From Candidatus Doudnabacteria bacterium (GTDB taxonomy: Bacteria; Patescibacteriota; Doudnabacteria; UBA920), in contig JARLHZ010000004.1 of assembly GCA_031291995.1 (NCBI GenBank), positions 5,272-69,271 of the forward strand: a DNA stretch of 64,000 nucleotides, given 5' to 3'. How positions within the stretch are numbered: the stretch's first letter is position 1; each line of letters opens with the position of its first letter. This document shows positions 4,847 through 53,113 of this stretch, piece by piece. The translations under genes were made by a program, and so were the position numbers. The notes under the pieces are model-generated. The model made no database searches and was not told where the DNA came from. It was given only the letters and a program-made list of their open reading frames with translations.

Positions 4847-4983
4847 TAAGGCCGTGACGGCCGGATAAAATTTTTTTTGCCTCTACGTCTTGCCAGGTAG
4901 CAACGTTGATAAAAGTAAAACCGTGCGTTGGCAAGGCGCGGGGCAAAAAAATTTTACCGCCCGCCCCGCCCTTACCTTAAGCG
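4847..4983. repeat. ~130-bp repeat element, copy 1 (second copy at 31327-31453)
   Basis: taaggccgtgacggccggataaaa...ttttgcctctacgtcttgcca...ttggcaaggcgcggggcaaaa... shared with 31327-31453. Internal inverted repeat ttttgcc..cgccttgccaa / ttggcaaggcg..ggcaaaa. Confidence 0.6.
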
Positions 4984-10983: not shown

Positions 10984-11454
10984 TTGTATTGTGAAACAAA
11001 ATTAAAATCCAATATTATGAGGCATTATCACATGAGCCGAATTCTATATACTTTCATGGTAGCTTTGTTGTTAACTACCGCGGCCGTTTTTGTTTTGTAT
11101 TCGCAGGCGTTACCCGCAAAAGCGCTGCCGGTGTTTGTTCCTTATGGAGGCTTCGTAATTGCCGGCCCCTTGGCTGCCCAGAGTATTATTTGTCCGGAAT
11201 ATTCACTTGTAAATAATGTCGATTTGGAAAACGGTCTCGGGCCGGTTATTGGTATTGCCATCCCTGTCACGCCGCCGGCGCCGACTTATGATTTCAACGA
11301 TATATTTACACCCGGTAATCCTTTAGTGGGTGGCGTTCTGCCGACCCCCTGTGCGGTGGGCCTCGGAGGCGTCCAGGTTTATCCTATATTTTTTGACGCT
11401 CCGGACGGCCCGTTTTATTTGACCGGTACGGGCGGAATTCCGGGAACATATTAA
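10984..11454 (+). CDS. small secreted/membrane hypothetical protein (likely start at 11032, MSRILY...)
   Basis: N-terminal hydrophobic helix LYTFMVALLLTTAAVFVLY followed by a Gly/Pro-rich mature part. No family recognised. Confidence 0.35.
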   Translation: MYCETKLKSNIMRHYHMSRILYTFMVALLLTTAAVFVLYSQALPAKALPVFVPYGGFVIAGPLAAQSIICPEYSLVNNVDLENGLGPVIGIAIPVTPPAPTYDFNDIFTPGNPLVGGVLPTPCAVGLGGVQVYPIFFDAPDGPFYLTGTGGIPGTY

Positions 11455-11464
11455 AAAAACAAAT

Positions 11465-12331
11465 ATGGAAATTTCAAATCAGGAAGCTCAATCTGTTTCT
11501 CCTCAATCAATACAGTGGGGGCATTTTGGCATAATTATGTTTGCCGTAATTTTGCTTTTTGGCGCGGCGTACTTGGAAAAGCCCCAGCTGTTTGATTTTC
11601 ACAAAGCGCAAACCCTTGCCGAGGCCGGCTTGCCGCATTATGTTCCTTATGTTCCCTCGGCGGAAGACTTGCCTCAGCCGGCCGTGCTGGGGGCAAGCAC
11701 CGACCAGGGTCCGCAAATAATAGGGGACGACGGAAAAGTCGCCCCGGTAAACGTTGGACAAGTCTTGGGCGCCAGCACCCAGGGGGTTCAACTTTCTTTA
11801 AGCGATATTAAAGTAAATTCCATTCCCGACTCCGCGGGGTCAGTTAAACAATATTTTATCGATACGCAAGCCATAGAATCAAATGTTATTAGTAATAATG
11901 ATTTTGCAGGAGCTATAAACTCCGGAGACCAAGGGCAAATAAATATTCAGGCGCAAAAAATTTCCGGCTTGTTAGCCGCATTGCAGAAATTACCCGTTCC
12001 CCAGAGCCTTATAAAACTGCAGCAATTAAAAATCGTCCAGTATAATTCCACGATCGCTCTGCTGCAGAATTTTACGAAAGCCGATGAAAACCCCGACCAA
12101 ATTAGTGCCGATCTTCAGCAGTTTTTAAAGAGCCAGCAGGACTTGGATAATGAAAATATCGCGGTGGCGCAAAAATTTCCTCAGGACGACCCACAGTCGG
12201 CGTTGTATCTTAATGCTGACGGCTCCCCGGCTGTTTCGCAATCCACCATTGACAACTTTGGTTCCAGCGCGGTCACGCCAAGCCAAGTTTCCAGCTTAAC
12301 GAATTTAGACAACAGCGATGCGGGCCAATAA
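11465..12331 (+). CDS. hypothetical membrane-anchored protein
   Basis: TM helix HFGIIMFAVILLFGAAYL followed by a Q/S/D-rich hydrophilic domain. No recognisable family. Confidence 0.35.
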   Translation: MEISNQEAQSVSPQSIQWGHFGIIMFAVILLFGAAYLEKPQLFDFHKAQTLAEAGLPHYVPYVPSAEDLPQPAVLGASTDQGPQIIGDDGKVAPVNVGQVLGASTQGVQLSLSDIKVNSIPDSAGSVKQYFIDTQAIESNVISNNDFAGAINSGDQGQINIQAQKISGLLAALQKLPVPQSLIKLQQLKIVQYNSTIALLQNFTKADENPDQISADLQQFLKSQQDLDNENIAVAQKFPQDDPQSALYLNADGSPAVSQSTIDNFGSSAVTPSQVSSLTNLDNSDAGQ

Positions 12332-14276
12332 CGTCAAAAAAATAATTGCAGCGGCTTTAATTTTCAGCCAAATGGTTTTGATGCCGGGCTTGGCTTTTGC
12401 TTTGCCCCTTAGCGGTACCGGTACAGCTGCCGGGGCGGTCAATCCTGTGCCGATTAATGACAGCGGGTCGGTCGTCGGAAATACCGCATTTGATATTGCT
12501 TTAAAAGCAATTTTAACTTTAAATCCCGAATCCCTGGCGGTTTGCGATACTACACTGCAGGGATTCGAAAAAACGGATACTGTAACGCAGGTTGGGTTTT
12601 CTTTTTCTGCGATTATCGGTGGAGGAAATCTTTTGGCCGCGCAGTATGCCAAGGAGATTACCGCATACACCGCATATTTGGCGTGTCTTGAAGGCGATCC
12701 GACCTTGGGTTTTACGCCGGGCGTGCTCCCTGCTTTACAAGCTTTAACATCGCCAAACATTTATACCGCAAGCGTCAAGGAACAATATATTACTAAGGTT
12801 AACGCGAGTATTGAAGCCTATACCGCTAAATTGAACAGCGCCATTGCTAAATACAATGTTGCCAGCCAAAACATCTGGAAAGCCTTTTTAATTACCGTTC
12901 TTCTTCAAACCACGAAAGTCGTGGCTGACCAGTTGGTAAACAAGTTGGTGAATAATTTTAAAATTGCCAATATCAAAGCTTATACCGATTCGGTCGCGAC
13001 TTTAATGTATGACAACCAGTTTATTCGGGACAATTTTCCCGACAACCAGGGCCAGCTTATGGCCAGGGCTATTTTAACTAATCCGGCGTTCCGATTCCAG
13101 GTGCCGCCCGGGATTTACGTTCAAGCGGACACGGCTTTGGGTTATGCGACCTTGAATCCGGACGATCCCTATTTTTACAGCGACCTGGCCAAAGCCGGCT
13201 TTGCGGCTACGAATCCCTATTATTTACATACGACTTACGTAGGCGGTGTTGATCAATCTCATGGTTCGGCGCTGGCTTCGGCCAAGACTTTTATTTCCCA
13301 GGGCACCGGCTATAAAGCGCCGGTTAATTGCGCGGGCAGTCTGGCCCAGCAGCAGCAAATAGACACCGCGACCAAAGCCGCATCAGATCAGTTGGCTAAT
13401 AGAGCGGCATTGCTTCAAAGTTTGCAAAATGCCAGAAGTACCATGACTAATTTTACCACTGCGCAAATTCAGCAGATGGATAGCGACATAGCCAAAGCCC
13501 AGGCCGATTATAATACTGCGCTGGCCGCGTGGAATAATTTGCCATTTACCGTGACTGGTAATAATAGTGTTAGCAATTCAGCCGTGGGCGGCGGTAATAA
13601 CACCGAAGGCACCGCGGCTATTGTTATGTGCGAGGCTATTAATTCCCCGGCCGTGTTAGTCAATCAGGGTATAGATGCCATGTTTAAATCTTTAAACCTT
13701 GGCCAGTATACCCCCAACAACTTGCCCGGTTTCTTAAAGGCAATGGCTGGTATCGCAACACAAATCGGTTCCAGTATGGTTATGGGCGGCATTACCGGTC
13801 ACGCCGTAAATATAAATGAAAATATGGCTGCGGGCGCGGCGGTTTCCGTCACCCAAGCGGCGACCATTCAAACACTAAACAACAACACCGAAAGTAATAT
13901 GGCAAAGGGGATAGATCTTGAAGCTTACCCCAACTCGGGTGTAACCAACGGGTATACTTTAACCTGGACGGTTATGACGACTCAAATCGGGACCGCCAGT
14001 TATGCGGCGATTACCGGGCCGGGGGTAGTGGGTACTACGACAAGGCTGCCGCTCAGCGGGAGCATGCAAGTAGTTTCGCCGACGGGCGGCAATTATACAC
14101 TGACTGTATTTGATTCTTCCGGTAAACCACTGATTACCGCCGTAGCCACTGCCACACCGCAGCAGACCGCGTACAATAATAATGCAAACTCGCCAACCGT
14201 GGCCGGCGCGTTTACCAACCAGCCGGTAATTCTGCCCAGAGGCCTGGTGCCCGTATTTGCTCCGAGAGGGGAATAG
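12318..14276 (+). CDS. large secreted hypothetical protein (signal peptide)
   Basis: Signal peptide IIAAALIFSQMVLMPGLAFALP. 652 aa, A/T/N-rich. No family recognised. Confidence 0.4.
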   Translation: MRANNVKKIIAAALIFSQMVLMPGLAFALPLSGTGTAAGAVNPVPINDSGSVVGNTAFDIALKAILTLNPESLAVCDTTLQGFEKTDTVTQVGFSFSAIIGGGNLLAAQYAKEITAYTAYLACLEGDPTLGFTPGVLPALQALTSPNIYTASVKEQYITKVNASIEAYTAKLNSAIAKYNVASQNIWKAFLITVLLQTTKVVADQLVNKLVNNFKIANIKAYTDSVATLMYDNQFIRDNFPDNQGQLMARAILTNPAFRFQVPPGIYVQADTALGYATLNPDDPYFYSDLAKAGFAATNPYYLHTTYVGGVDQSHGSALASAKTFISQGTGYKAPVNCAGSLAQQQQIDTATKAASDQLANRAALLQSLQNARSTMTNFTTAQIQQMDSDIAKAQADYNTALAAWNNLPFTVTGNNSVSNSAVGGGNNTEGTAAIVMCEAINSPAVLVNQGIDAMFKSLNLGQYTPNNLPGFLKAMAGIATQIGSSMVMGGITGHAVNINENMAAGAAVSVTQAATIQTLNNNTESNMAKGIDLEAYPNSGVTNGYTLTWTVMTTQIGTASYAAITGPGVVGTTTRLPLSGSMQVVSPTGGNYTLTVFDSSGKPLITAVATATPQQTAYNNNANSPTVAGAFTNQPVILPRGLVPVFAPRGE

Positions 14277-14323
14277 TATTCGCTTTTCAATCGACCGTTT
14301 AGAAAAACAAAAATTAGGAGATC

Positions 14324-14352
14324 AAAAAACCATCATCAAAGATGGTTTTTTG
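14324..14352 (+). terminator. rho-independent terminator
   Basis: aaaaaccatc-atcaaa-gatggttttttg is a stem-loop followed by a T-run, downstream of 12318-14276. Confidence 0.6.
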
Positions 14353-14481
14353 ATAGTCACGGGTCTGCCGCCGAATATTTATGCTTAACGCGTTAGGCCT
14401 GACCCGGATAGTTATTTGCACTATAATTTGCATCCATCGGTTGCAAATAATTTCAATAAGCGTAAACTGTAGATAGCCATT

Positions 14482-14519
14482 TGGTAGACAAAACGTGCGG
14501 CCGCACGTTTTGTCTACCA
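14482..14519. repeat. 38-bp perfect palindrome, copy 1
   Basis: tggtagacaaaacgtgcggccgcacgttttgtctacca (centre GCGGCCGC). Confidence 0.9.
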
Positions 14520-14563
14520 ATATCAAATAAAAATTATTACAAGTAGTCTTAAAAATAAAGTTT

Positions 14564-14656
14564 CGTCATCCCCGGCTTGACCGGGGATCCAGAATTGTTC
14601 TTACTTGCTTGACTTGGATTCCTCCGTCCGCCTTAGGCGGGAGGACGGGAATGACG
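14564..14656. mobile_element. MITE-like element copy (TGTCATCCCG family)
   Basis: cgtcatccccggcttgaccggggatcc ... ggcgggaggacgggaatgacg. The termini are inverted (gtcatccccg / cgggaatgac). Confidence 0.45.
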
Positions 14657-14717
14657 TAAAGTGGTCAAAGGTTATTTTTTAAGATAGCTTCTAAGATAAA
14701 AATTAAATTTTACTTTT

Positions 14718-15251
14718 ATGCCGAAAAAAGATTCGACCGCGGTAAATGAAGTTTTATTTTGGCTGTACGAGACGGGGAAGCTTTTGTCCGTAATTTTCGC
14801 GTCCAAGCACGAATGGAAAAGGCGGATGTGGAATCATACCTGGGGGAACTACAACAATTATAAATCCACGGTTTACCATATGCGGGAACAGGGGCTGGTG
14901 GAAATCGTGTCCAAAGATGGCTTAAGGTTTTTAAAACTTACGTCCAAAGGGCAAATGGAAGCATTGCTGGCCAAAGCAAAAGTCGTTAAGCGAGCAGTTT
15001 GGGATAAAAAATGGCGGGTGCTGATTTTTGACATCCCGGAAGACGCCAAATTGCAGAGGAACCAATTCAGGCGTCTGTTAAAAAGAAATGAATTTAAAAA
15101 ATTGCAGGCCAGCGTTTATGTAAACCCCTACCCGTTTAACCGCGAGGCAATTGAATATTTAAAAGAATCAGGTTTAATAAAGTACATTCGGATTTTAAAA
15201 GTTGAAGAAATGGACAGTGATGCCGATTTGCGTAAGATGTTTAATATATAG
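14718..15251 (+). CDS. wHTH + Cas2/VapD-fold (PaaX-like) small protein
   Basis: N-terminal winged-helix-like region (VYHMREQGLVEIVSKDGLRFLKLTSKGQ). The C-terminal region matches the Cas2 beta1-alpha1-beta2 pattern (KKWRVLIFDIPED...QFRRLLKRNEFKKLQASVYVN). No cas1 or array is present. Confidence 0.4.
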   Translation: MPKKDSTAVNEVLFWLYETGKLLSVIFASKHEWKRRMWNHTWGNYNNYKSTVYHMREQGLVEIVSKDGLRFLKLTSKGQMEALLAKAKVVKRAVWDKKWRVLIFDIPEDAKLQRNQFRRLLKRNEFKKLQASVYVNPYPFNREAIEYLKESGLIKYIRILKVEEMDSDADLRKMFNI

Positions 15252-15325
15252 GACTTACTTCTTTCAAAGCGGAACACATTTTTTAATGAGCTTCTGATAC
15301 TAGTCAAATAATCTAAAAATAAAAT

Positions 15326-15363
15326 TGGTAGACAAAACGCGCGGCCGCACGTTTTGTCTACCA
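15326..15363. repeat. 38-bp palindrome, copy 2 (one mismatch)
   Basis: tggtagacaaaacgcgcggccgcacgttttgtctacca. Confidence 0.9.
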
Positions 15364-15732
15364 AAGACAAGAGTTGTATTTTTATATTTATAGGCGATAT
15401 TGGCGAATGGCGCGGGTGGTGTGGCGTGGCAAATCAAATCGGATATTCTGAAGGCAATTTCGGTTTTAATCGACACTATTCCCCGGAGCCCCACTCCAGG
15501 GTTAACAATTATGTCATCCCGGAATTTTTCAGGGCTGTGAAAAATATCCGGGATCCAGTCAGGGCGGCATTCTGGATCCCGGCTCTCTACCTTCGTCAAG
15601 GCTACGGCAGACAAGTCGGATGTATTCGGCCGAGCTGATACACTAGCTATTTGGACTTGTTACCACGCTGCTCTGCCGCGGGGAGGGCTCATTGAAAATC
15701 TGATGCCAATCTTAATAATCTAGAAAGAAAAT

Positions 15733-15770
15733 TGGTAGACAAAACGTGCGGCCGCACGTTTTGTCTACCA
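15733..15770. repeat. 38-bp perfect palindrome, copy 3
   Basis: tggtagacaaaacgtgcggccgcacgttttgtctacca. Confidence 0.9.
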
Positions 15771-15955
15771 AAGACAGGTTTTGTTGAAATTATATTTTAT
15801 AGACGATATCGGTGCGTGGCGCGGGTGGTGCGGGGTGGAAAATCGTCCCGGATATTCTAAAGGTAATGTCGGTTTTATCTAATTTTTACCAATACACAAA
15901 ATTGTTCCGTTTCCCGTAGGTTTGCCGGACTATATTTTGACTTTAATTCACAAGT

Positions 15956-16115
15956 TTGCCGAGGTTACTTCCCACTGGCCCTGTGTCATTGCGAGGAAAC
16001 AAGGGCTTTGACTTATTTCCGAAGCAATCTTAGAGAGACAATAAGATTGCTTCGTCGGCTGCACTCCTCGCAATGACACAACAATTCAATACCCAGTGGG
16101 CAGTAACTTGCCGAG
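15956..16115. mobile_element. MITE-like element with ~45-bp imperfect terminal inverted repeats
   Basis: Left arm ttgccgaggttacttcccactggccctgtgtcattgcgagga. Right arm tcctcgcaatgacacaacaattcaatacccagtgggcagtaacttgccgag. Internal palindrome gaagcaatcttagagagacaataagattgcttc. Confidence 0.55.
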
Positions 16116-16119
16116 TATT

Positions 16120-16147
16120 TTGTGATTTTTGGGGAATGTGGTATAAT
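16120..16147 (+). promoter_or_regulatory. sigma70-like promoter candidate for the VirB6-like gene
   Basis: -35 ttgtga at 16120-16125, a 16-nt spacer, and an extended -10 tgg-tataat at 16139-16147. It sits 24 bp upstream of the ATG at 16171. Confidence 0.4.
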
Positions 16148-16170
16148 TTTAGTGAAAGTCTTATCCACAA

Positions 16171-24782: not shown

Positions 24783-25181
24783 ATGGCAGATCAAAACAAA
24801 ATAATCCATAAGGATCTCAGTTATAAAATTGTCGGTGTTGCTTTTAGATCTTTTAAGGCAACAGGATATGGAATGCCTGAAAAGTACTGTCAAGGTGTGT
24901 TCGCTGCCGAACTTGAGAAAGCTGGGTTGCACTTTAATCGGGAAGTTTATGTTACTTTAAATTATGAAGGTAAAGTTATCACAAAGTATTTTTTAGATTT
25001 TATTGTTGAAGATTCGGTGGTTGTGGAATTAAAAGTTCGGCCAAAAATCGGATATGCCCATATTGAACAAGTAATGGCATACCTTAAAGCAACGAATAAG
25101 AAATTAGCGATTTTAATCTATTTTACCCAAGAAGGTGTGAAATATCGGAGAATCGTTAATTCTTACAACAAACTACAATGA
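24783..25181 (+). CDS. GxxExxY-family protein (PD-(D/E)XK-like)
   Basis: DLSYKIVGVAFRSFKATGYGMPEKYCQGVFAAELEKAGL...FLDFIVEDSVVVELKV...IEQVMAYLKATNKKLAILIYF. Confidence 0.7.
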   Translation: MADQNKIIHKDLSYKIVGVAFRSFKATGYGMPEKYCQGVFAAELEKAGLHFNREVYVTLNYEGKVITKYFLDFIVEDSVVVELKVRPKIGYAHIEQVMAYLKATNKKLAILIYFTQEGVKYRRIVNSYNKLQ

Positions 25182-40612: not shown

Positions 40613-41008
40613 ATGTTTAAAGGCTTTAAAGATTTTGTGTTGCGGGGCAATGCGGTGGATTTGGCCGTAGGCGTGGTTATGGGAGCCGCTTTTGGCACCG
40701 TGGTTAACGCATTGGTTAAGGATTTCTTAACTCCGTTGATCGGGATTATTTTTAGGATTCCTCATTTATCCGGATGGAGCCTGACCATAAACGGCAGTAC
40801 TTTTTTGTTTGCCGACCTGATTAATTCGTTTATTGCCTTTTTACTGGTTGCTCTGGCTGTTTATTTTTTTGTCGTGGTGCCGATGAATACCCTGACAACC
40901 AAATTTAAAAAGCCCGTTGAGCCTGGGACTAAAAAGTGTCCAGATTGTTTGAGCGACATCCCCCTTGCCGCAAAGCGTTGCGCATTTTGCGGACAGGTAA
41001 TAGTTTAA
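40613..41008 (+). CDS. mscL: large-conductance mechanosensitive channel MscL with a C-terminal zinc-ribbon tail
   Basis: MFKGFKDFVLRGNAVDLAVGVVMGAAFGTVVNALVKDFLTPLIG and a C-terminal CPDC...CAFCG. Confidence 0.8.
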   Translation: MFKGFKDFVLRGNAVDLAVGVVMGAAFGTVVNALVKDFLTPLIGIIFRIPHLSGWSLTINGSTFLFADLINSFIAFLLVALAVYFFVVVPMNTLTTKFKKPVEPGTKKCPDCLSDIPLAAKRCAFCGQVIV

Positions 41009-41020
41009 ATTATGCTGACT

Positions 41021-41097
41021 AGTGTCAAGGGTCGCCCTTGACATAGATGTTTTTGAATAAAATCAGCGTTTTTGACGGCCGACAAAAACGCTGATTT
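41021..41097. terminator. two consecutive hairpin terminators between convergent mscL and the pspC-domain gene
   Basis: gtgtcaagggtcgcccttgacat, and aaaatcagcgtttttgacggccgacaaaaacgctgatttt with a perfect 15-bp stem. Confidence 0.55.
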
Positions 41098-41112
41098 TAT
41101 AAAAGCCGAAAA

Positions 41113-42177
41113 CTACCATCTTTTTATTTTTTCCCACACGTGCTGCCACCACAGGGAAACTTTGTAAAAGTAAGGATGCGAGTCGGGGACAAAGTGCCAA
41201 AGCAGCCAAATCATTATGGCCCAAAAAGCGAACCAGGCCATAGCCTCGGGAAAACCATCATGGTTATGATAATGGTGGATGTTTCCATCTTGCACGTAAG
41301 TCCAATGCCACCGCGCGGCTTTAAATGGCCAGACAATAAAACTATAAAGGCAGAGCCAAACTAAAACCGCGACCCAAATCGGAATTCCGGCCGGCACGGC
41401 ATAGCCTAATATCATGCCCTTCGTGGCCAGGCTGAGCAAGCCGAGTAACCAGAGTACCGACAACACGCCAATTATCAGGCCAAAAAACGGAATGTATCCC
41501 GGACCGTGATTGCTATACATTTCCTGGCGCCGGCGCTGTTTTTCTTCGCGGTGCTGCTGCTTTATTTCGTGCCGCCATTTTTTCCATTCGCCTTTGTCGG
41601 CAAAATTGTGGTATTCCTGTTTGGCCTTATCTACCCATTCCTGGGCGGTAAAGGGTCGGCCAAAAGCCTGGGCTTTTTCCTTTGAGGTCTTGGCCTTGGG
41701 AATCACAATCATCATAATTAAATAAACCAAAATCCCGAAGCCTTGGGTTACTAAAGTTAAAATAATAAAAATCAGGCGGATTAATGTTACGTCGGCGTTA
41801 AAATAGGCGGCTAAGCCGGTGCAAACGCCTCCGAATATGGCTCCTTCGCGAATAAGATACAATCGCTTGGGCGCGCCAGCGCTGTCATTTTGGCTCGAGT
41901 TAGCGGTTTCGTCTGTTTTTTGAGAACCCTGAACCGGCCCCATTTCCTTAAGAACTTCGTCGACTTCTTTTTCTAAAACCACTGTTTTTCCCGCGGCCAA
42001 AAACCGGCTGAATTTTTCGGCCACGGCCTGTTCCAGGTCGGCAATTATTTCTTCTTTGTCGGGATCCTCGCCGAGCCGAGTCCGGGCCTCTTGCAAATAA
42101 TTTTGCAGTTTTTCGTAACCGCCTTCTTCCAGCAAAAACGCGCGGCCGTTTAAATTTATGGTGATAACTTTGTTCAT
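41113..42177 (-). CDS. PspC-domain membrane protein
   Basis: PspC domain LYLIREGAIFGGVCTGLAAYFNADVTLIRLIFIILTL, followed by additional TM helices and a basic linker. Confidence 0.6.
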   Translation of the reverse strand: MNKVITINLNGRAFLLEEGGYEKLQNYLQEARTRLGEDPDKEEIIADLEQAVAEKFSRFLAAGKTVVLEKEVDEVLKEMGPVQGSQKTDETANSSQNDSAGAPKRLYLIREGAIFGGVCTGLAAYFNADVTLIRLIFIILTLVTQGFGILVYLIMMIVIPKAKTSKEKAQAFGRPFTAQEWVDKAKQEYHNFADKGEWKKWRHEIKQQHREEKQRRRQEMYSNHGPGYIPFFGLIIGVLSVLWLLGLLSLATKGMILGYAVPAGIPIWVAVLVWLCLYSFIVWPFKAARWHWTYVQDGNIHHYHNHDGFPEAMAWFAFWAIMIWLLWHFVPDSHPYFYKVSLWWQHVWEKIKRW

Positions 42178-52978: not shown

Positions 52979-53113
52979 GTTTGTACTTTTATTTTAAAAG
53001 TAAAATTAAAGACATTTGACTGGATCCCGGATATTTTTTGCGGCTTATGATGTTCATATTCGCAAAAAAATCCGAGATGACGCTTGAAGTTCGGCGATAA
53101 TTCAGCGTACCTA

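Follow-up and report, generated by a model that had tools for sequence, protein, structure and literature searches.

The closest described counterparts of the locus analyzed here are autoregulated winged-helix repressors with palindromic operators, above all PaaX of E. coli and Pseudomonas, whose Px, Pa and Pz operators belong to the phenylacetate catabolon. In E. coli the protein recognizes an inverted repeat of 39 bp (TGATTC-N27-GAATCA) and, by steric hindrance, keeps its own promoter Px repressed (PMC9493321). A locus that is probably of this known kind was found in a 64,000-nt stretch of DNA from a Candidatus Doudnabacteria bacterium (contig JARLHZ010000004.1 of assembly GCA_031291995.1; hereafter the window), where a small PaaX-like gene, here called mini-PaaX, is bracketed by copies of a 40-bp palindrome and followed by a type IV secretion system-like (T4SS-like) gene cluster. 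As in PaaX, a winged-helix N-terminal domain is combined with a Cas2-like dimerization domain, and in both systems a long inverted repeat, known operator or putative one, has a span of ~39-40 bp and a copy at the regulator's own promoter. Mini-PaaX differs in having 177 aa and no phenylacetyl-CoA-binding C-terminal domain, and its neighbors are T4SS-like genes, with no paa genes. Its site is palindromic over all 40 bp around a GGCC center, whereas the PaaX operator consists of two 6-bp half-sites separated by a free N27, and the two sequences are unrelated. Moreover, a second (and here a third) copy lies 3' of the regulator's stop codon.

Operators present in several copies over a few hundred bp, with one copy at the promoter, are also known from the looping systems lac (O1/O2/O3) and gal (OE/OI); extra copies would raise the local concentration of the repressor. 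The copies described here are spaced 844 and 407 bp apart and, in contrast to lac and gal, a loop between them would enclose the whole regulator gene; oligomerization beyond a dimer has no evidence in its favor. What appears to be new is an effector-less mini-PaaX whose gene is tightly bracketed by paralog-specific 40-bp dyads, with one such module heading a T4SS-like operon. A search of the available literature collection for PaaX with a Cas2-like domain, in Patescibacteria or in the Candidate Phyla Radiation (CPR) found no papers. The features on which the description is built are as follows (positions in the window):

14481-14520: palindrome 1 (UP site), a perfect dyad of 40 bp that reads TTGGTAGACAAAACGTGCGGCCGCACGTTTTGTCTACCAA and lies 197 nt 5' of the PaaX-like start codon
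14718-15251, + strand: mini-PaaX gene, 177 aa, N-terminal winged helix followed by a PaaX_M/Cas2-like domain
15285-15470: unit A, made of left flank 15285-15324, palindrome 2, AT-rich linker 15365-15386 and block A
15325-15364: palindrome 2 (DOWN site, copy 1), 73 nt 3' of the stop codon, T>C at 15340
15387-15468: block A, G-rich on the + strand
15471-15692: spacer between the units, not duplicated, with hairpin repeats at 15516-15554 and 15548-15582
15693-15880: unit B, made of left flank 15693-15731, palindrome 3, linker and block B
15732-15771: palindrome 3 (DOWN site, copy 2), a perfect dyad 480 nt 3' of the stop codon
15796-15877: block B

The initial annotation had described a ~408-bp tandem duplication of a non-coding unit in a ~900-bp gene-free gap. 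The presence of two similar units was confirmed by a repeat search, by global alignment and by BLAST, which returned E=3e-7 for block A against block B when searched within the window. The repeat search listed an 82-nt pair (15387-15468 and 15796-15877; 82% identity, spacing 409) and a 71-nt pair that holds the 40-bp palindrome (15307-15377 and 15714-15784; 92% identity, spacing 407). In the global alignment the units ended at ~15285-15470 and ~15693-15880, and beyond these limits the identity fell to ~45%. The similarity extends past the palindrome, with 75-81% identity in the non-palindromic parts and 97.5% in the palindrome; the outcome named in the initial annotation as its refutation, a similarity confined to the palindrome, was thus not observed. 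The duplication itself was thus correctly recognized, but it is not a head-to-tail one of 408 bp, because the 222-bp spacer is not repeated 3' of unit B; the DNA that separates the units is unrelated to them and carries a dispersed hairpin repeat. The gene-free gap was measured as 919 bp (15252-16170), and the mechanically predicted open reading frames (ORFs) inside it had no Pfam match.

Two palindromes had been counted previously, and a third, identical one was found at 14481-14520, 5' of the PaaX-like gene; the palindromes therefore bracket that gene. The palindrome arm was matched six times in the 64-kb window (0.22 matches expected by chance). Three copies of the whole palindrome were present, all of them around this one gene, and no further copy was detected in the window. 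Palindromes 1 and 3 are 100% identical, yet the flanks of palindrome 1 are unrelated to those of the other copies, and palindrome 2 is identical to the other two at 39/40 positions. The copies lie 844 and 407 bp apart, leaving intervals of 804 and 367 bp, one of which holds the PaaX-like gene itself. The block occurs only twice in the window.

The gene between the palindromes encodes a protein identical to P4L74_00485, from a Candidatus Doudnabacteria metagenome-assembled genome (MAG), as found by homology search. Pfam assigned it to PF20803, PaaX_M (E=1.1e-18, 67.6 bits against a cutoff of 24). The PaaX equivalog model TIGR02277 reached 34.1 bits against a cutoff of 264.55, with an alignment restricted to profile positions 38-159 of 279; the chain terminates directly after PaaX_M, at residue 177, and a C-terminal helical effector (phenylacetyl-CoA) domain is absent. 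No Pfam winged-helix model scored above threshold for this protein. The AlphaFold model (mean predicted local distance difference test score, pLDDT, 79) contains helices at residues 7-18, 30-36 and 45-57 and a beta-hairpin wing at 61-74, and in a fold search its best PDB match was full-length E. coli PaaX (8a39, E=1.5e-6). The N-terminal half of the model matched the winged-helix proteins MarR, PadR, AspA and F-93, and the C-terminal half matched Cas2 and VapD. The protein presumably acts as a dimer. A BglG match in a sequence search of solved structures was discarded as spurious, and PaaX was found only by the fold search. A CRISPR array (clustered regularly interspaced short palindromic repeats), suggested by the Cas2 match, was also considered and rejected. 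Such arrays have regular repeats of ~28-37 bp and spacers of like size, often accompanied by cas genes; here the palindromes are 804 and 367 bp apart and no other cas genes are present. Phenylacetate (paa) genes were not found among the neighbors, which are KsgA, DUF192, unannotated ORFs and the T4SS-like cluster, and the PaaX-like paralogs adjoin argS, sugar-nucleotide epimerase, gyrA and mnmA-type genes.

The arrangement of palindromes and gene was compared in 12 loci, namely the window and 11 others: six T4SS-linked orthologs (L001, L004, L005, L031, L032 and L035), two epimerase-linked paralogs (L029 and L034), an argS-linked paralog of this genome (L028), a gyrA-adjacent homolog (L033) and a homolog at 42% identity (L036). 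The identity of the PaaX-like orthologs and paralogs examined was 42-69%. In all 12 the gene is flanked by a locus-specific dyad of ~40 bp, centered on GGCC in 11/12. An unbiased local alignment of upstream against downstream intergenic DNA recovered the shared site in each of 11 loci, with cognate scores of 15-37, whereas 110 non-cognate pairs scored 9.2 on average and 19 at most; the same site-gene-site design was seen by inspection in L036. Within the fetched loci no other long GGCC-centered palindromes were present. The arms vary from locus to locus, and also between paralogs of one genome (L028 and L029 against L001, for example), while the copies at one gene match each other. In L029 only 14-15 of the 20 arm positions pair, yet the two copies agree over 34 nt, mismatches of the dyad among them, which fits the recognition of a sequence and not merely of a hairpin. 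A comparison of the recognition helix with the half-site was suggestive only, being confounded by phylogeny, and showed that the window and L001 share both.

The position of the sites was also consistent among the loci. Judged by position only, the upstream copy in the 12 loci lies over the -35/-10 hexamers or over the region where transcription starts. In L004, L005, L031, L032 and L036 its left arm contains TTGACA or TTGACG and its right arm one of TATAAT, TATTAT, TATTAG and TATACT, and in the window, L001 and L033 it starts just 3' of a -10 hexamer. Except in the window (+73 and +480), the downstream copy is placed between -4 and +25 nt relative to the stop codon, and the relatives have a single downstream site. 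Downstream sites are 95% arm-paired, 17/20 pairs change on both sides, and their covariation score is 0.88, against 0.22 for shuffled and ~0.15 for slid controls; upstream sites are 80% paired, with a covariation score of 0.57. In the epimerase-linked paralogs both copies lie at the same short distance 5' of the start codons of the regulator and of the next gene, a layout that fits one operator controlling both genes. The order UvrD, KsgA, DUF192, three ORFs, PaaX-like gene and TrbL-like gene is kept in the orthologs, where the gap between the last two is 230-420 bp (reliable gene calls) against 919 bp in the window.

Some individual sites were noted during these comparisons. The argS-linked paralog of this genome, P4L74_00420, adjoins smpB and argS; the site that it has for itself (ATACATTAATnAAnCGTACCT...; positions 1188-1215 and 1748-1785 of L028) is unrelated and occurs 5' of the start and directly after the stop. 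It is the sole locus of the 12 without a GGCC center. In the window, a 40-bp GGCC-centered palindrome with other arms (AAAATCAGCGTTTTTGACGGCCGACAAAAACGCTGATTTT, 19/20 pairs) occupies 41059-41098, between the convergent genes mscL (40613-41008) and a PspC-domain gene (41113-42177); it has no adjoining PaaX-like gene and looks like a bidirectional terminator. A scan of species-representative genomes with the palindrome core returned one locus, L008 (Candidatus Doudnabacteria MAG CAVYGQ010000001.1), in which a nearly identical inner core (TTGTTGACAAAACGCGCGGCCGCGCGTTTTGTCAACA, 4922-4958) with other outer arms fills the 55-bp gap between an adenylate-kinase-like (adk) gene and map, again with no adjoining PaaX-like gene. 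It could be a member of the regulon of that genome's ortholog, or a plain terminator.

The two units of the window were then compared part by part. Between units A and B the identity was 30/40 in the left flank, 39/40 in the palindrome, 16/21 in the AT-rich linker and 66/81 in the block, so the palindrome is better kept than the rest of the unit (112/142, 79%; Fisher p=0.0024). The segment of ~100 bp singled out as conserved in the initial annotation corresponds to the block, and in the alignment of the two copies it is no better kept than the flank or the linker. When folded on both strands, the block was no more stable than its shuffles (z +1.3, -0.2, +1.1 and -0.3); the fold of the units is dominated by the palindrome hairpins (z -3.4 and -5.3). 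Rfam at gathering thresholds returned only tRNAs for the window as a whole, and a search of 14280-16200 at E<=1 gave nothing but hairpin matches far below threshold. Nothing similar to the block was present in the 11 other PaaX-like loci, and a metagenome scan with its most conserved 22 nt (TGGCGCGGGTGGTGNGGNGTGG) gave 19 loci, each matching the pattern only, as expected by chance in G-rich DNA. Translations of both blocks in six frames, when compared with the window and with every locus, gave no match, and neither did any mechanically predicted ORF overlapping the units in Pfam or 15270-15900 in plasmid and phage collections (blastn, distant mode). Two mini-ORF frames on the + strand are open in both copies, and one of them keeps its start (ATG/GTG) and stop (TGA/TAA); the ratio of synonymous to non-synonymous changes was 5:7 in the best frame on either strand, a figure with no power given 15 differences between the copies. 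Shine-Dalgarno-like motifs (GGAG, GAGG, AGGA, GGGG or AAGG) were found in the 20 nt 5' of the start in 0/43 well-defined genes (2163-63945), and this Doudnabacteria genome appears to do without Shine-Dalgarno-led initiation. Because none of these 43 genes has such a motif, its absence is no argument against the mini-ORFs. As judged from these alignments and searches, the block is most likely a hitchhiking spacer without a function of its own. The duplication is in itself a minor, lineage-specific event, of value in that it exposes which 40 bp of this intergenic DNA are constrained.

The 40-bp dyad is, in our view, probably the cognate cis-site, here a duplicated operator, of the adjoining autoregulated PaaX-type repressor, and the block a spacer carried along with it. 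The bracketing association stands on much firmer ground than binding of the protein to this site; from the sequences we infer binding to the dyad, repression through binding and neutrality of the block. In this model, mini-PaaX would bind the upstream dyad, which overlaps the core promoter or the transcription start of the mini-PaaX gene, and would thereby keep RNA polymerase away and repress its own expression. The downstream dyad, placed ahead of the next transcription unit (here the T4SS-like operon), would probably serve as a second operator, either auxiliary and acting by looping or a control site of the next gene, and it may, in certain lineages, double as a hairpin terminator or insulator. 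In the window, a piece of ~190 bp, comprising the downstream operator with ~40 bp on its left and ~110 bp on its right, would have been copied once, and ~220 bp of hairpin-repeat DNA would later have parted the two copies. The palindrome would have been held at 39/40 by selection, or by conversion against the upstream copy, while the rest drifted to ~79%. An invariant GGCC center with paralog-specific arms is what would be expected of dimeric regulators that share a scaffold and are insulated from cross-talk. The suggestion of regulatory sites in the initial annotation thus held in spirit, since the palindrome belongs to a class of locus-specific dyads that bracket PaaX-like genes and overlap their promoters.

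Several points weigh against an operator of this type. The pairing of protein and site is deduced from their co-location and from the match, specific to each locus, between the two copies. A dyad that is symmetric at all 20 arm positions exceeds the usual need of a winged-helix dimer and points to selection for a hairpin or cruciform, at least in the downstream copies. In the T4SS-linked loci the downstream site is clear of the conserved operon promoter, at a variable distance of ~60-370 bp upstream, and direct control of that promoter by the site is unproven. GGCC-centered palindromes also occur without a PaaX-like neighbor, at 41059-41098 and between adk and map in L008. The window also departs from most relatives in that its upstream copy is a perfect palindrome, free of -35/-10 hexamers and 197 nt away from the start codon. 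As for the block, its neutrality is judged from two copies, and its 14-nt exact core (TGGCGCGGGTGGTG) and the two shared mini-ORFs may be functional.

The palindromes might instead be RNA hairpins only, acting as intrinsic bidirectional terminators or stabilizers of mRNA ends with no protein involved, and their copies might be alike by gene conversion. This explanation agrees with the dominance of the palindromes in the fold, with the covariation along the full length of the arms of the downstream sites, and with the like palindrome between convergent genes at 41059-41098. Palindromes 2 and 3 also score as minus-strand terminators, with an 18-bp stem and then a T-run (hairpin plus TTTTATTTTT and hairpin plus TTTTCTTTCT), and in the T4SS-linked orthologs the inner part of the downstream site reads as A-tract, GC stem and T-tract. 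The downstream dyad thus shares with Rho-independent bidirectional terminators a long perfect hairpin, a GC-rich center, A- and T-tracts (in the T4SS-linked orthologs) and a place after the stop codon. However, in the sense of the PaaX-like mRNA (+ strand) neither palindrome 2 nor palindrome 3 shows a T-run, palindrome 1 has no terminator pattern, and the upstream gene already has separate canonical terminators. The upstream copy is itself the core promoter in L004, L005, L031, L032 and L036, so it would not be transcribed as a hairpin, and only 13-14/20 of its positions pair. The tracts are reversed or absent, with no U-tail, in L035, L029, L034 and L033, and the L029 copies share the same imperfections. 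A terminator needs neither an invariant GGCC center nor arms that match the site across the gene, whereas here the same sequence recurs at the gene's own promoter and the arms are paralog-specific. A role as hairpins alone was therefore considered rather unlikely. A second explanation, that each unit is a small gene, was regarded as quite improbable. It would encode either a small RNA of ~125 nt on the minus strand, with a C-rich unstructured body ending at the palindrome terminator, or a mini-ORF on the + strand (MARVVWRGKSNRIF / VARVVRGGKSSRIF, or a 27-33-aa FI(G/D)DIG..WRGWCGV.. peptide). The minus-strand hairpin and T-run are present in both units, unit B has a promoter-like TAGATA-16-TAGAAT (9/12) at the right distance, and the two + strand frames described above are open in both copies. 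On the other side, the putative minus-strand -35 lies at or beyond the edge of the duplicated segment, differs between the units and is poor in unit A. The long frame is affected by a 2-nt indel between palindrome and block, so that its N-terminus is not the same in the two copies, and its stops also lie at different positions. The lack of fold signal, of Rfam and Pfam matches and of relatives, together with a conservation no higher than that of the flank, speaks against any small gene, and the duplicated small RNA proposed in the initial annotation was for these reasons not upheld.

It is highly improbable that the palindromes are the ends or attachment sites of a mobile cassette, a family of repetitive extragenic palindromes (REP) or miniature inverted-repeat transposable elements (MITE), or iterons of the origin of an integrated conjugative element. 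The idea draws on the identical repeats that bracket a small gene beside T4SS-like genes, and on the small hairpin repeats that have invaded the surrounding intergenic DNA. Iterons likewise are repeated similar non-coding sites, which can lie near conjugation-type genes, but they are direct repeats of 17-22 bp, whereas here three 40-bp dyads lie hundreds of bp apart, with no Rep gene, no AT-rich unwinding element and no change of skew. With three copies only, spacings of 844 and 407 bp, no replication gene (Rep/DnaA-type) nearby and a cumulative GC skew that is monotonic, without inflection, the iteron or replication sites that had also been proposed at the outset are not supported. Three copies in 64 kb, all at one gene, do not fit a REP or MITE family, and a mobile cassette is opposed by the absence of an adjoining transposase or integrase gene and of matches in the plasmid and phage collections. 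The gene order is kept down to ~58% protein identity and each locus has its own diverged site, so the PaaX-like module is ancient and vertically inherited.

Returning to the operator reading, a more far-reaching form of it can be stated. Mini-PaaX with paralog-specific, mostly GGCC-centered bracketing dyads would be a widespread and undescribed module of Patescibacteria, the full dyad (possibly as a cruciform or hairpin) would be recognized instead of half-sites, one module would gate the T4SS-like apparatus, and the third site would be functional, by looping or insulation, and not a product of drift. Taken together, these claims are unlikely. Transcriptional regulation in CPR/Patescibacteria is barely known, as their genomes are tiny and contain few recognizable regulators. 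If true, the operator reading would provide a testable pairing, at the level of sequence, between regulator and operator for an expanded CPR regulator family in which each paralog has its own 40-bp site around a GGCC center common to them, including a paralog ahead of a T4SS-like cluster thought to be relevant to the episymbiotic lifestyle.

The promoters, the first gene of the T4SS-like cluster and the hairpin repeats around the mini-PaaX gene are the following:

14441-14468, + strand: candidate PaaX-like promoter, TTGCAA-16 nt-TAAACT, predicted from sequence, ending 12 nt 5' of palindrome 1
14561-14659: hairpin/MITE-like insertion between palindrome 1 and the PaaX-like start, inverted repeat TTTCGTCATCCCCG / CGGGAATGACGTAA
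15964-16107: nested hairpin/MITE-like insertions, outer inverted repeat GTTACTTCCCACTGG / CCAGTGGGCAGTAAC, inner element 15982-16080 with 16-nt perfect terminal inverted repeats
16120-16147, + strand: T4SS-like operon promoter, TTGTGA-16-TATAAT with a TG extension, 10/12 in the promoter scan
16171-19932, + strand: TrbL_3/VirB6-like giant membrane protein, first gene of the T4SS-like cluster; its orthologs carry PF19590 (TrbL_3)

The candidate promoter of the PaaX-like gene is weak (8/12) and was not listed by the promoter scan, which lists CTGACC-17-TATAAT at 14399-14427. The same layout is found in the closest relative, L001, with TTGACA-17-TAAACT and the site 4 nt later. The promoter of the T4SS-like operon is almost invariant in six orthologous loci. 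The region around it (16120-16155, TTTGTnnTT...TGTGgTATAATTTTAGTGA) has equivalents in L001, L004, L005, L031 and L032. It is 93% identical to L001 over 57 nt, against ~69% in the adjoining coding DNA, which suggests an additional conserved regulatory site.

The VirB6-like label given previously to the gene downstream of the gap is reasonable, as its orthologs carry Pfam TrbL_3 and it is followed by PrgI, a VirB4-like ATPase and SLT_3 (SLT lysozyme). The T4SS-like cluster is interrupted, beside the PrgI-like gene, by two small genes (23749-24123 and 24783-25181), one for a 23S rRNA intervening-sequence protein of the four-helix bundle family and one for a PD-(D/E)XK_3 nuclease. On the other side of the mini-PaaX gene, three conserved ORFs of 156, 288 and 652 aa without a family match (10984-14276) lie 5' of the PaaX-like gene in every T4SS-linked locus and may form one functional neighborhood with it.

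Small hairpin/MITE-like elements with terminal inverted repeats of the GTCATCCCCGG... and TGTGTCATTGCGAGGA types were observed at 14561-14659, 15509-15585, 15964-16107 and 53017-53080. A 22-nt stretch of the spacer between the units recurs without mismatch at 53017-53038 on the minus strand. One of the elements is nested in another, and they fill the enlarged intergenic regions near the PaaX-like gene. In the relatives the upstream site lies only 14-38 nt from the PaaX-like start codon, and the gap downstream of the gene reaches 919 bp in the window because of the hairpin insertions, most of which are missing in the relatives.

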